64,000 bases of DNA from positions 6,980-70,979 of the forward strand of contig CAYZBM010000002.1 in NCBI GenBank assembly GCA_964476705.1, in the 5' to 3' direction. The notes beneath the pieces are model-generated. The model ran no database searches, was not told the DNA's origin, and saw nothing but the letters and a program-made list of their open reading frames with translations. Numbering within the stretch: the first letter of the stretch is position 1; each line of letters opens with the position of its first letter. A program made the position numbers and the translations under genes. Source of the stretch: an uncultured Rickettsiales bacterium. GTDB taxonomy: Bacteria; Pseudomonadota; Alphaproteobacteria; Rickettsiales; UBA6187. This document shows positions 3,828 to 63,779 of this stretch, piece by piece.

Positions 3828-3978
3828 TATAGCAGTTAAAGCTTGCGCTTACCTAAATTTTTATGGATCTCGGTCTCAAAGTACTCGGGATATGTGTAGC
3901 ATCATAGCAATGATTTATTTAAATAATTAAAACAGAAAATCATTAGCAAATCAGCGATTTATTATTGATCTACTATAG
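3828..3978 (-). mobile_element. MITE-1 family copy (modules B+A, reverse orientation), 14 bp upstream of the katG start codon
   Basis: It is the reverse complement of the copies at 14115-14235 and 27524-27650. Termini are TATAGCAG...CTACTATAG, with the internal hairpin GCAATGATTT/AAATCATT. Confidence 0.8.
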
Positions 3979-4002
3979 TTTATATTTTAAATAACAACTA
4001 AA

Positions 4003-4025
4003 TATAGCAGAACAAGCAATGATTT
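4003..4025 (+). repeat. MITE-1 5'-terminal fragment
   Basis: TATAGCAGAACAAGCAATGATTT matches the first 23 nt of module A. Confidence 0.6.
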
Positions 4026-4037
4026 GCTACCTGATTT

Positions 4038-4073
4038 ATAAAAAATATCTTATGATATTTTTTTGCGTACAAC
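4038..4073. terminator. degenerate copy of hairpin family H just downstream of ohr
   Basis: The AAAAAATATC-ttat-GATATTTTTT core is shared with the hairpins at 1573 and 37330. It ends ...CAAC like the other copies. Confidence 0.45.
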
Positions 4074-4079
4074 TAAATA

Positions 4080-4487
4080 TTACTTTTTAATATTTAAAAT
4101 AACATCAATATTTCCTCTGGTAGCCTTAGAATAAGGGCAGCCTTCATGAGCTTGATCGATAATTTTTTTTGCAGTTTCATCATCAACTCCAGGAAGAGTA
4201 ACATCTAAAATTACACTGATAAAATATCCACCATCATCATCTTGATTTAAATTAACAGCTGCCTGAACTTTAATTTCTGAGATTGCAATTTTATGTTTTT
4301 TAGCAACTCCTTCAACCGCGCTACCAAAGCAAGCACTATAGCCAGCTGCAAATAATTGTTCAGGATTAGTCCCTGGTTTATTGCTTCCGGGAGCAGAAAG
4401 TTTTACTGAGAGTTGTTTGTCGTCAGTTTCTGAGTAACCATTGCGACCTGATATTGTTGTAGCGTGAGCTGTGTAGAGAATCTTCAT
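4080..4487 (-). CDS. ohr: organic hydroperoxide resistance protein (Ohr/OsmC family)
   Basis: 135 aa. Both catalytic cysteines sit in Ohr context (GYSACF and GCPYSKATRGNI). Confidence 0.92.
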   Translation of the reverse strand: MKILYTAHATTISGRNGYSETDDKQLSVKLSAPGSNKPGTNPEQLFAAGYSACFGSAVEGVAKKHKIAISEIKVQAAVNLNQDDDGGYFISVILDVTLPGVDDETAKKIIDQAHEGCPYSKATRGNIDVILNIKK

Positions 4488-4520
4488 ATGAGTTATTCCT
4501 TTTTTAGATTAGAAATTAAT

Positions 4521-4673
4521 CTATAGTAGATCAAGAAATAATTTACCTCTAATCAATAATTATTAAATTATTTCTATGATGCTACATATCCTGAAAAAAC
4601 ATATACTTATAATACTATTTATGTTTTGTTCAGGATCCATAATATAGGTCATTTCAATCATGAAATACTATAG
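4521..4673 (+). mobile_element. MITE-1 family copy (modules A'-C-D), 34 bp upstream of the ohr start codon
   Basis: Terminal inverted repeats CTATAGTA...TACTATAG. Internal hairpins GAAATAATTT/AAATTATTTC and CCTGAAAAAACATA/TATGTTTTGTTCAGG. Confidence 0.8.
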
Positions 4674-4876
4674 CCTATTTCTTATTAAAATTTAATCATA
4701 AAATAAGGAAAAATAATAAAGAAGGTGTAAAGTGTGAGTTTTAGTGTGTTTGAACGATAAGAGAGCTGGATATTACAGAATATTTAAATAAGTCCGTCTA
4801 TGCGCTCAAGACTTTAAAATATGATTATAGCTGATAATTATGTAGTTTACTTAAGGTGCTTGGAAATTGCTGATTA

Positions 4877-60710: not shown

Positions 60711-61700
60711 ATGAGTACTAATCATAAAGTTAAAGAACATAATTATATTCCATCACTAAAAACTAAAGGTCGTGGTAGATGTTATGAAAATTTTGCTGAT
60801 GCTGTTGGCGATACGCCACTGGTTAAACTAAATAGAATTGCCAAAGATGCTAATTGTGTAGCTAAAATTTATGCTAAATTAGAATTTTTTAATCCACTAT
60901 CTAGTGTGAAAGATCGTTTAGCTTATGGAATGATTGAACATGCCGAGCAACAAGGAATTTTAAATTCTGAAAGTGTAATTATTGAACCTACTTCCGGGAA
61001 TACTGGAATTGCTTTGGCTTTTATTTGTGCAGCAAAAGGTTATAAACTTATTTTGACTATGCCAGAGAGTATGTCAATTGAAAGACGTAAGATGCTTAAA
61101 CTTCTTGGCGCTCATTTAGAATTAACTCCAGCATCTAAAGGAATGAAAGGTGCTATTGAAAAAGCTGAAGAATTAGCTAAGGAGAATAAAAATTCTATAA
61201 TTTTACAACAATTTACAAATCCAGCTAATCCAGTTATTCACGAGCATACAACGGCAGAAGAGATTTGGAATGATACTCATGGTAAAGTTGATATTTTTAT
61301 AGCAGGCGTAGGTACTGGTGGTACAATTACCGGTGTTGGTAAATTCTTAAAAGAAAAAAATAATAATGTAAAAATAATTGCGGTTGAACCAGAAGATAGT
61401 CCGGTATTATCAGGCGGCCAACCTGGCCCCCATAAAATCCAAGGAATTGGTGCTGGCTTTATTCCAGAAATTTTAGATAAAAGTTTGATCGATGAAGTAA
61501 TTACTATTGGTAATGAAACAGCCTTTAATACCGCAAGATTAGTGGCTACTACAGATGGTATACCAGTTGGTATTTCGTCAGGTGCTACAATTGCGGCAGC
61601 CTTAGAAGTTGCTGCTCGTCCAGAAAATAAAGGCAAAACTATAGTTACAATAGTAGCTTCTTGTGCCGAACGTTATTTATCTACAGCATTGTTTGAATAA
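60711..61700 (+). CDS. cysK: cysteine synthase A (O-acetylserine sulfhydrylase)
   Basis: PLP-lysine motif SVKDR, TSGNTG and [10 protein letters not shown] loops. 329 aa. Confidence 0.93.
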
Positions 61701-62459
61701 GTGCGTCTAAGTCCTGAACAACATAAACGCTATTTGCGGCAAATTAATCTCGACCGCGTTGGTATATCGGGACAAAATTTGCTGCAAGCTAGCAAAGTAT
61801 TGGTTGTAGGTAGCGGTGGCTTAGGTTCGATAATTCTTCCTTATTTAGCTGGTAGTGGCATTGGAACAATTGGGATTATAGATTCTGATATTGTGGAGTT
61901 AAGTAATCTACATCGCCAGACCATTTTTGATTATGCGGATATTGGTAAAAGTAAGGCTCTAGTTGCTAAAAATAAATTATTAGCACTTAATCCTGATATA
62001 GAAGTTATTGCTTATAATGAAAGATTTGAAAATAATAAAAATTCCAGTGTAATTGAAAAATACCAACTTATAGTTGATGCATCAGATAATTTTGCTACTA
62101 AATTCGCGTTAAATGAGGTATGTATTTCTCAGAAAAAGACTTTTATCTGGGGAGCGGTACAAGAATTTTCTGGGCAAGTAGGGGTAGTTAAACATAATCT
62201 GCAAAAAAAATATCCTTGTTTTGAATGTTTTTGTCCAAAAAATATTTTAAATAATAATGCGCTGCAAAATTGTAATAGTTTAGGAGTTTTAGGTAGTGTA
62301 GTTGGAGTTATTGCCTCACTTCAAACTACCGAAATATTAAAAGAATTATTACAAATACCTGAAAGTTTGGCGGGAAGTATTTTAATTTATGATGGTTTAA
62401 AATCTCAATTAAGAAAAGTGGGGTTGTCAGTAAATAGTGAATGTTTATCTTGTAAGTGA
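61701..62459 (+). CDS. ThiF/MoeB/HesA-family E1-like adenylyltransferase
   Basis: RYLRQI, GSGGLGS nucleotide loop and two CxxC pairs (CFEC, CLSC). The GTG start directly abuts the cysK TAA. Confidence 0.88.
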   Translation: MRLSPEQHKRYLRQINLDRVGISGQNLLQASKVLVVGSGGLGSIILPYLAGSGIGTIGIIDSDIVELSNLHRQTIFDYADIGKSKALVAKNKLLALNPDIEVIAYNERFENNKNSSVIEKYQLIVDASDNFATKFALNEVCISQKKTFIWGAVQEFSGQVGVVKHNLQKKYPCFECFCPKNILNNNALQNCNSLGVLGSVVGVIASLQTTEILKELLQIPESLAGSILIYDGLKSQLRKVGLSVNSECLSCK

Positions 62460-62468
62460 TGAGAGCAT

Positions 62469-63206
62469 ATGCCACGTTATAAATGTATAGTTGAATATGA
62501 TGGAACTAATTTTTGTGGCTGGCAAATCCAAGAAAATGGTAAAACTATTCAAGGAGAAATAGAAAAAGCCATAAAATTATTTTCTGGTGAAGATGTGACT
62601 ATTTGTACGGCAGGGAGAACAGATTCTGGGGTCCATGCTTTGGCGCAAGTATTTCATTTTGATTTAAGTAAAGAATATAATGTTGAAAATATTCGTGGAG
62701 GCTTAAATTTTCATTTAAGTACCGATGCTATTTCAGTTTTATCGGCAGAAATTGTTGATGAAAATTTTCATGCGAGATTTGGGGCAAAAAAACGCCATTA
62801 TAAATATATCATTATAAATAGACGAAGCCCTTTAGCTTTAAATTTAAATAGGGCTTGGCATGTACCGGTTATTCTTGATATAGGCGCTATGAATCAGGCT
62901 GCAAAATTATTTTTAGGAACGCATGATTTTACTAGCTTTAGAGACTCTGAATGCCAGGCAAAATCAGCAATAAAAACAATTGATAGTTTAGATGTAGTTA
63001 AGCATGATCATGATATAATAATTTCAATATCGGCAAAATCCTTTTTACACCATATGGTTAGAAACATAACTGGGACCTTAAAATTAGTTGGCGAAGGAAA
63101 ATTATCCGTAAATGATATCCCTGAAATTTTTGCTAAAAGAGATCGAGCTGCAGCAGGGCCGACAGCGCCGGCTTGTGGGCTTTATTTTGTTAAGGTTGAG
63201 TATTGA
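62469..63206 (+). CDS. truA: tRNA pseudouridine(38-40) synthase
   Basis: VEYDGTNFCGWQIQ, and GRTDSGVHA catalytic Asp motif. 245 aa. Confidence 0.95.
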   Translation: MPRYKCIVEYDGTNFCGWQIQENGKTIQGEIEKAIKLFSGEDVTICTAGRTDSGVHALAQVFHFDLSKEYNVENIRGGLNFHLSTDAISVLSAEIVDENFHARFGAKKRHYKYIIINRRSPLALNLNRAWHVPVILDIGAMNQAAKLFLGTHDFTSFRDSECQAKSAIKTIDSLDVVKHDHDIIISISAKSFLHHMVRNITGTLKLVGEGKLSVNDIPEIFAKRDRAAAGPTAPACGLYFVKVEY

Positions 63207-63207
63207 T

Positions 63208-63235
63208 TTGACACATCAATAAAATACTTTATTAT
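63208..63235 (+). promoter_or_regulatory. sigma-70-like promoter candidate for the phd-parE module
   Basis: TTGACA (63208-63213), 16 nt spacer, TATTAT (63230-63235). It lies ~35 nt upstream of the antitoxin start. Confidence 0.35.
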
Positions 63236-63265
63236 ATCTTTTAAAGAACTTTATTTAATTTTTTA

Positions 63266-63595
63266 TTGGATATGCAGATGATTAATATTACAGAGGATAT
63301 ACATTCTTTAACTGATTTTAAAAAACATACCAGTGAATTTATTTCTGGCCTTAAAAAGACAGGACGGCCTGCAGTGTTAACTGTAAATGGTAAAGCTGAG
63401 ATCATAGTTATGGATGCCTCAGCTTATCAAAATATTCAGGATGAATTGATTTTTAGAGAAAACATTGCAGAAATAGAAAAAAGTTTGGAAGATTTTGAGT
63501 GTGGACGTTTTTCTTCTTTTGAAGATATTTTTTCTCGATTAAAAACAAAAATTAGAAAACAAGAAAAGAAATTAACCAATAAAAAACTTAAATAA
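63266..63595 (+). CDS. type II antitoxin, Phd/YefM family
   Basis: LTDFKKHTSEFISGLKKTGRPAVLTVNGKAEIIVMDASAYQ. The real start may be the ATG at 63272 or 63278. Confidence 0.82.
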   Translation: MDMQMINITEDIHSLTDFKKHTSEFISGLKKTGRPAVLTVNGKAEIIVMDASAYQNIQDELIFRENIAEIEKSLEDFECGRFSSFEDIFSRLKTKIRKQEKKLTNKKLK

Positions 63596-63597
63596 TA

Positions 63598-63779
63598 TAC
63601 TATAGTAGATTAAAAAATGATTGACAGTAGAATGCATATATAATCAATCATTATTTATAATGCTACATCCCTGAATAAATCCGGGACAGGTTATCCTGAA
63701 AAAACATATCCTTATAATACTATTTTATGTTTTATTGAAGGATCCAAAAATACATTCATTTCAATTAAGAAATACTATA
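63598..63779 (+). mobile_element. MITE-1 copy (A''-x-C-D) inserted between antitoxin and toxin genes
   Basis: TACTATAGTAGATTAAAAAATGATT...CCTGAAAAAACATATCC...GGATCC...CATTTCAATTAAGAAATACTATA. It ends on the base before the toxin ATG. Confidence 0.85.

Follow-up and report, generated by a model that had tools for sequence, protein, structure and literature searches.

The closest mechanistic precedent, by analogy, for the repeats described here is the pair formed by RUP and IS630-Spn1 in Streptococcus pneumoniae. RUP is a ~107-bp non-coding miniature inverted-repeat transposable element (MITE) with >100 intergenic copies, inserted at TA and bounded by inverted repeats like the ends of IS630-family insertion sequences (IS), and together with its partner it sets the precedent for a MITE that duplicates TA (PMC2229807, PMC3049150). 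The Correia elements of Neisseria bear TA at both ends with target duplication, fall into size classes of 104–108 and 153–157 bp and reach 126–250 copies per ~2-Mb genome (PMC5039591, PMC9778887, PMC2229807); Neisseria carries IS5, IS30, IS110 and IS1595 elements, with no IS630 and no cognate Correia transposase (PMC9778887). Rickettsia palindromic elements (RPEs) are known for inserting in frame into genes for proteins and RNAs, and they do not generally have a TA end (PMC2229807). In this work we analyse a family of short modular hairpin repeats in a 64,000-nt stretch (the window: contig C2, positions 6980–70979; GenBank CAYZBM010000002.1) of the genome of an uncultured Rickettsiales bacterium (GTDB lineage UBA6187, assembly GCA_964476705.1), a 1.94-Mb draft in 112 contigs that is 95% complete, has a shortest contig of at least 1835 bp and a GC content of 32%, the same as that of the window. 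These repeats probably constitute a MITE family of the IS630/Tc1-mariner type whose recent amplification was limited to this species and whose transposase, acting in trans, is now lost, unassembled or plasmid-borne. The family itself is new and the kind of element is ordinary and well known, while its modular build is unusual.

Like RUP, the family consists of small, non-coding, TA-inserting MITEs that tend to insert into other mobile elements (PMC2229807, PMC3049150). The two have only this element type in common and no sequence similarity: RUP is a single simple unit with a co-resident IS630 whose ends match its own, whereas the present family combines interchangeable hairpins into mosaics, has several alternative kinds of end and sits in an assembly that holds no IS630. 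Correia elements are alike in forming subtypes from alternative ends plus an optional internal segment, in their comparable copy number and in having two size classes, those of the present family lying at 127 and ~151–153 bp against the Neisseria values given above. RPEs are alike as palindromic repeats of ~100–150 bp at high density in an alphaproteobacterium of the obligate-intracellular type.

A preliminary description of the window had assigned 15 loci to one repeat family, and all of them, four very short ones included, bear the family sequence; a repeat finder recovered the family independently, as D1 with seven copies and with D2–D7 and D13 as additional pieces. BLAST searches with seven window copies as queries yielded at least 225 merged loci covering 28.6 kb on 90 of the 112 contigs, a density of ~116 loci per Mb and at least 1.5% of the genome, while a second pass seeded with the first-pass loci gave 259 loci and 44.4 kb, a total that includes an adjacent second repeat family. 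This density is on a par with the maxima found when 183,000 prokaryotic genomes were surveyed, those of Wolbachia at 123 per Mb and 1.23% (bioRxiv 10.1101/2024.01.18.576219). The 60 commonest 16-mers of the whole assembly are all family-derived (40–68 copies each), TATAGYAGAT occurs 140 times in the forward and 130 times in the reverse orientation where ~9 per strand would be expected for one such 10-mer, and the terminus TATAGTAGATYAAG with at most one mismatch is found 181 times compared with 11 for its reversed control. Since 78 of the 224 contig ends (35%) lie inside a family copy, often breaking ~54 nt into the element, the family is a main cause of assembly fragmentation. The preliminary description had raised the possibility that the copies are confined to this region as a local segmental duplication, or are fragments of an annotated IS, a reading left with virtually no probability by the spread over 90 contigs with unrelated flanks and by the lack of any high-identity repeat of 300 bp or more carrying copies.

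Complete elements, 111 by strict criteria, measure 47–197 bp, are non-coding and have a GC content of 24% (genome 32%). Their boundaries read TATAG[T/C]A...T[A/G]CTATA, starting sharply at TATAG and ending at CTATA amid unrelated flanking bases. The T end, TATAG[T/C]AGAT[C/T]AAG, is followed by hairpin A, of which there are at least seven sequence variants, all with a perfect 10–12-bp stem, and then by a conserved linker, [C/T]TAT[G/A]ATGCTACAT. Beyond the linker stand either hairpin B and the B end (TATAGCAGTTAAAGCTTGC, reading inward) or hairpin C, which a small hairpin B' may precede, followed by the D hairpin and its end (TATAGTATTTC[T/A]T.ATTGAAATG, reading inward), the modules A–D being as originally described. 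The main size classes are 151–176 bp (47 elements in one cluster) and 127–134 bp (18 elements), with shorter derivatives of 47–84 bp, and the coexistence of full, internally deleted, ends-only and solo-end forms reported earlier was also seen here. The 8-bp terminal inverted repeats first reported are present but understate the length, as the shared repeat reaches 23 bp in 66-bp mini-elements that consist of T, A and an inverted T (e.g. contig C47, positions 5561–5626). The elements fold into two or three stable hairpins, the main types having z scores of −3.3 to −5.5 against dinucleotide shuffles, and the longest open stretch has a median of 35.5 codons.

Hairpin arms stay complementary while their sequences differ among subfamilies, and position 11 of the T end (C/T) covaries with G/A in the linker in 31 of 34 distinct sequences. 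Such compensated stems in abundant, mosaic, intergenic hairpins are also found in REP/REPIN and BIME palindromes, and the hairpin-rich make-up, covariation and high copy number of the repeats would suit sequences of this sort mobilised by RAYT, a Y1 tyrosine transposase. We nevertheless consider this origin highly improbable, as the family has the true terminal inverted repeats and TA duplication that REP/REPIN lack, is without a conserved GTAG-type head or a repeat-flanked RAYT, and the assembly gave no hit for TnpB or for a Y1_Tnp/RAYT gene in a search whose control matched in 6 of 14 genomes.

The linker reads as an inverted T end plus three single-base insertions, which suggests that it derives by decay from an inner end and that a mini-element was fused to further hairpin units to give the long forms. 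The simplest form would thus be the 66-bp hairpin with its 23-bp inverted repeats, and the 127-bp and 151–180-bp forms would represent a unit of this type whose inner end decayed into the linker and which became fused to one or two more hairpins (B, or C and D) bearing a second TATAG-type end. New combinations probably arose through insertion at the terminal TA of resident copies and recombination at the common linker.

Comparison of nested copies shows that insertion duplicates the dinucleotide TA, as the preliminary description had guessed. A 127-bp copy on contig C97 is inserted within hairpin C of a second copy, and relative to an uninterrupted copy the insert comprises TAGCAG...CTGCTA and one extra TA. 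In an empty-site test the flanks of each complete element were joined with nothing, with TA or with TATA, and ungapped matches spanning the junction were sought. Four nested copies (C10:8841, C5:2645, C61:6388 and C97:4312) matched uninterrupted paralogous repeats without gaps under the TA model only, at 92–99% identity over 64–82 nt; flanks joined with no base restored gave zero matches for all complete elements, and three matches under the TATA model were discarded as self-overlaps of tandem copies. No further direct repeat was found outside TATAG...CTATA, and the target context shows a weak A-rich/T-rich symmetry around TA. Numerous copies are inserted precisely at the TA that terminates another copy or a member of a second palindromic family, and such insertion at a resident terminal TA explains abutting arrays such as that at 46399–46700. 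We posit that a DDE transposase supplied in trans would bind the terminal inverted repeats (TAGTAGAT[C/T]AAG..., TAGTATTTC... and TAGCAGTTAAAG...), and that the excised element would be inserted at a TA dinucleotide with duplication of that TA, each copy then reading TA-TAG...CTA-TA. Small, non-coding, AT-rich, bounded by terminal inverted repeats, duplicating TA and dispersed genome-wide, the family agrees with the MITE assignment made at the outset and displays all the features by which bacterial MITEs are defined (Delihas 2008, PMC2229807).

The family is nearly confined to this species. Genes of the sister species (genome G001) are only ~70% identical to those of this genome, and its four matches to the terminus pattern lie below its own control of 14, compared with 181 against 11 here; it holds one decayed relic copy, and at its sites orthologous to 46399–46700, 58119 and 58896 the element is absent. 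No credible match to the 153-bp copy was obtained in 40 family- and order-level genomes, and an exact 23-mer scan of 185,579 species genomes returned zero matches. Two exact matches in JGI metagenomes were both set aside as chance occurrences in AT-rich coding DNA. This near-absence from the sister, the relatives, the species genomes and the metagenomes indicates that amplification was specific to this lineage, and the burst would have taken place in this species after its divergence from the sister. The reference copy at 4522–4672 can be aligned over 140 nt or more with 50 genomic copies, and 17 of these are at least 97% identical to it; judged from these near-identical sequences, ongoing insertion is plausible.

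Strict TA duplication with inverted repeats is the hallmark of the IS630 family in bacteria. IS630-type genes are common among relatives, occurring in 18 of 61 genomes and in 7 of the 12 genomes of the same family (this one counted), and in none of this genus. The order-level relatives G015, G029, G047 and G058 contain elements of ~925–940 bp with overlapping helix-turn-helix (HTH) and DDE_3 open reading frames (ORFs) and inverted repeats of TATAGTAAATTAAGTTGA, TATAGTAATTTAGG or TATAGTAATTTAGGTTGAATTAG. Solo ends in G015, TATAGTAGATTAAGTTGA, are identical to the first 14 nt of the MITE, and the first 14 nt of the IS630 ends of G015, G029 and G058 agree with the MITE at 13–14 positions. The same DDE clade is represented in named genomes of Chlamydiales, Legionellaceae, Tisiphia, Sarmatiella, Holospora, metagenome-assembled Rickettsiales, Suttonella and others, where nearly all members start TATAGT or TATAGC, and the tip TA-TAG[T/C] is the signature of this ~925-bp two-ORF IS630 clade. 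The short elements of Rickettsiales-like bacteria, Chlamydiales and Legionellaceae have the same TA-TAG[T/C] tip and TA target as our family and differ from it in being autonomous, with HTH and DDE_3 ORFs; none resides in this genome or in the sister. An IS630-clade transposase would bind and cut the TAGTAGATYAAG ends of the family, the mobilisation in trans that we propose. When the MITE ends were compared with 40 AT-rich IS630 ends, the observed score was reached by only 0–4 of 100 shuffles in which TA alone was fixed.

Several results weigh against this assignment. Once TATAGT is held fixed, 25–56 of 100 shuffles reach the observed score and an identity of 13–14 out of 14 is not above chance, which means that the secure link consists of TA duplication and the clade-specific tip rather than any particular parent element; no specific parent IS was found, nor any subterminal or interior similarity to IS630. 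Neither the assembly nor the sister genome contains an IS630-type gene or remnant, so that the proposed enzyme itself was not observed. Every contig end that stops inside a TATAG terminus continues as a known MITE subfamily, so that a multi-copy autonomous element has left no trace. The interiors of at least three other multi-copy repeats are also missing from the draft, which leaves the absence of the transposase equally short of proof, and the partner may be unassembled or lie on an unbinned plasmid.

Among the IS630 elements of the relatives, those at L014, L015 and L017 (in G047, G029 and G058, respectively) encode the transposase in two overlapping frames, an HTH part of ~126–140 aa and a DDE part of ~182–200 aa, an arrangement that suggests programmed frameshifting. 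G058 has at least 53 IS630 copies, many with one in-frame TGA. An 11-mer, AGCAATGATTT, common to hairpin A1 and the OrfA region of the G047 IS630 was dropped, its occurrence being about that expected by chance on a rough, uncomputed estimate.

That the window holds no transposase had been stated before, and for the families tested this extends to the whole assembly, in which DDE_3 (IS630), DDE_Tnp_1, rve, Y1_Tnp/RAYT and the TnpB zinc ribbon were absent in searches with working controls that did not take in IS110, IS256, ISL3, IS66 and serine/tyrosine recombinases. The search for the mariner domain Transposase_1 was uninformative, its control matching nowhere. The sister genome is likewise devoid of IS630, IS4/IS5, rve, Y1/RAYT and TnpB genes. 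A tblastn search of this genome with the IS630 OrfA and OrfB of relatives returned nothing below E = 0.2 and no remnant, inward-facing termini 500–3500 bp apart proved to be only neighbouring MITEs flanking ordinary genes and not an autonomous copy, and self-similar repeats of 300 bp or more were only paralogous gene families, none carrying family elements.

Three repeat ends, with three copies each, were confined to contig ends, their interiors being absent from the assembly: CCTGACTTCGTCAATGGGACACCCGAG... (C106_R, C109_L, C24_L), CCTGAGTTTAGCACTACCTCAAGG... (C112_R, C4_L, C97_R) and GTAACCGTTCAGGCCACTTAATC... (C10_R, C53_L, C71_R). The first two look like imperfect inverted ends of a single IS. 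As candidates for the missing partner all three were rejected, since they end in CCTGA... or GTAACCG... and not in TATAG. They do indicate that the organism has further multi-copy elements, and with IS630 absent from the assembly and the likeness to IS630 ends secure only for the 6-nt tip, a TA-duplicating MITE could instead have been mobilised by an enzyme outside IS630, such as another DDE family, an undescribed transposase or a protein of the unassembled CCTGA...-ended repeat. We regard this as unlikely, given that strict TA duplication with inverted repeats points to IS630, that the missing repeats have the wrong ends, and that genes for IS4/IS5, rve, Y1 and TnpB transposases are absent.

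The family has a parallel in the Correia elements of Neisseria, a betaproteobacterium of ~52% GC unrelated to this host. To our knowledge, the mobilising enzyme of the Correia elements has never been identified. The tip TA-TAGT and TA duplication are common to the orphan family studied here, the Correia elements and the short two-ORF IS630 clade of intracellular bacteria. The first 13 nt of the Correia repeat, TATAGTGGATTAA, and of the family, TATAGTAGATTAA, are alike at 12 positions, whereas the rest of the 26-bp Correia repeat (TATAGTGGATTAA[C/A]...) is not shared. With the hexamer fixed, both resemble IS630 ends at a level equal or close to that of chance. Against a Legionella IS630 end (TATAGTTAATTAAAATTTAAATGATC) the highest-scoring Correia variant reaches 15, where shuffles that keep the hexamer average 12.0 ± 1.4 and 8 of 100 attain 15. 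As the 26-bp repeat is not shared beyond its tip, the family is not a member of the Correia elements, and the relationship is one of analogy or at most of distant kinship between mobilising enzymes. Tentatively, and with more doubt than confidence, the IS630 clade could be the missing source of transposase for both orphan families, repeatedly entering a lineage, seeding MITEs and being lost again to leave fossil swarms. The family, an apparently orphaned swarm, provides a second independent case, beside the Correia elements, of a swarm of TA-duplicating MITEs without a resident transposase, and the common TATAGT tip points to a concrete, testable candidate enzyme clade.

Positions relative to genes were assessed with a rough ORF call (~86% of the genome coding) for the 88 complete copies of at least 100 bp. 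Intergenic copies account for 76 of these, in line with the initial view that the repeats are mainly intergenic, and the remainder extend either only into the 3' end of an ORF (nine copies) or into the 5' end (three). As no copy is contained within an ORF, the hallmark of RPEs, in-frame insertion into genes, is absent; a frame is open from end to end in only 2 of the 88 copies, and TA ends are present on every copy. The likeness to RPEs drawn in the preliminary description accordingly stands for density and fails for in-frame genic insertion. The family marks intergenic regions, and at least nine genes take their stop codons and C-terminal residues from it, so that annotation should mask it.

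The placement at gene ends, with nine copies giving an ORF its stop codon or last codons, could also be read as a sign of host function, the repeats being hairpins for RNA stability or processing, promoters or protein-binding sites spread by selection and recombination instead of selfish transposition. Their hairpins are stable, compensatory changes maintain the stems, and in a few outward promoter-like sites the terminal TATA serves as the −10 box (e.g. 58268–58296 and 58922–58894). We think such an explanation very unlikely for the family as a whole, because promoter-like matches in the region (113 compared with 102 ± 9 in shuffles) and terminator-like ones (10 compared with 9 ± 3.6) are not enriched, the sister species has orthologous sites without copies and almost none genome-wide, the truncated, nested and solo-end debris is consistent with parasitic turnover, and the TA duplication is a scar of transposition. 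Individual copies may have been co-opted secondarily.

Within the window, the copies lie among ordinary housekeeping genes (katG, ohr, phoH, ybeY, msbA-like, pyrB, plsC-like and lpxC). A complete 150-bp element on the minus strand at 3828–3977, between katG and ohr, has a B end on its left and, on its right, a variant T end with an extra TAGCAAATCAGCGATTTA hairpin. It is followed at 4003–4025 (plus) by a solo T end with the first arm of hairpin A1 (TATAGCAGAACAAGCAATGATTT; one mismatch in 23), which abuts a copy of the second palindromic family at 4028–4075. The complete 151-bp element at 4522–4672 (plus), of the form T-A2-K-C-D, is the reference copy of the largest subfamily and folds with z scores of −5.5 on the plus and −4.7 on the minus strand. 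At 14115–14235 (plus) lies a 121-bp T-A1-K-B element with a degraded right end (CTGTTATA), the first 33 bp of which give the last codons and stop of a phoH-like ORF (13182–14147). The 24-bp ends-only form TATAGTATTTCTTAATCTACTATA at 21168–21191 (minus), a T end and a D end joined at their common TTAAGAAAT, adjoins a tRNA gene (21217–21289), contains a 16-mer found 47 times in the genome and has an identical copy at C11:29895. A solo D end (TATAGTATTTCATGATTGAAATAC...) at 23203–23232 (minus) is 91% identical to the D module over 22 nt. The complete 127-bp T-A1-K-B element at 27524–27650 (plus), with perfect 8-bp tips (TATAGCAG...CTGCTATA) and a fold z score of −5.4, begins 1 nt past the stop of an ORF at 26809–27522 and lies upstream of the msbA-like gene. 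A solo variant T end at 42005–42049 (minus) is 93% identical to positions 3937–3980.

Further along, a truncated D end with part of hairpin C (45228–45290, minus) ends 1 nt before the stop of pyrB (45292–46350, minus). Together with a 126-aa ORF at 44833–45213 this truncated repeat lies between a tRNA gene and pyrB; matches to the tRNA gene and pyrB in G001 are only ~78 bp apart, which marks the ORF as lineage-specific or inserted. The array at 46399–46700, first described as three abutting copies, is real but differs in make-up: a T-A1-K-B element at 46399–46520 (plus), damaged in that its right end is interrupted by the next copy, is followed by a complete 152-bp T-A4-K-C-D element at 46521–46672 (plus), whose terminal TA is common with a solo T end (TATAGTAGATCAAGATTAG...) inserted at that TA (46671–46700, plus). 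A solo T end at 47471–47489 (minus), upstream of a 2115-aa ORF, matches the TATAGTAGATTAAAAAAT... subfamily in its first 18 nt, and the right edge of a truncated T-A2 element at 54748–54802 (plus) overlaps the stop of lpxC (54800–55693, minus). A complete, divergent 175-bp element composed of a D variant, C, B', an A variant and T occupies a divergent intergenic region at 58120–58294 (minus). The complete, internally deleted 75-bp element at 58896–58970 (plus), made up of T, half of A1 and D, separates two co-directional genes. In G001 the genes flanking this site (58883–58983) are ~4 nt apart with no element, and are probably translationally coupled there; here they have been pushed ~100 nt apart. 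The last copy is a complete 179-bp T-A3-K-B'-C-D element at 63601–63779 (plus; fold z score −2.9). Outward promoter-like sites were noted at 58268–58296 (plus), 58922–58894 (minus) and 63627–63599 (minus), with the terminal TATA and two flanking bases as the −10 box and a subterminal −35 box ([T/C][T/A]GTCA or TGGAAA) at a spacer of 17; they are reminiscent of Correia end promoters and belong to a class that is not enriched over shuffles.

The second palindromic family consists of a ~48-bp near-perfect palindrome, TAGTTGCC[C/A]GTGAAAAAA[C/T]ATC-TTAC-GATATTTTTTCAC..GCAACTA, with compensatory changes between copies. It is present in the window at 1571–1618, 4028–4075 and 37328–37375 and has at least 31 copies genome-wide. 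This second family (TAGTTGCCCGTGAAAAA...), which occurs at many contig ends, was rejected as a long IS and is another small modular hairpin repeat. The ~48-bp palindrome is often followed by further hairpin modules (GAATAATCTATACTCAGGGTAGGCCCTACGTATAGATTATAAATTCTTC...), and 8 of the 31 copies have a MITE-type TATAG or CTATA within ~25 bases of the palindrome.

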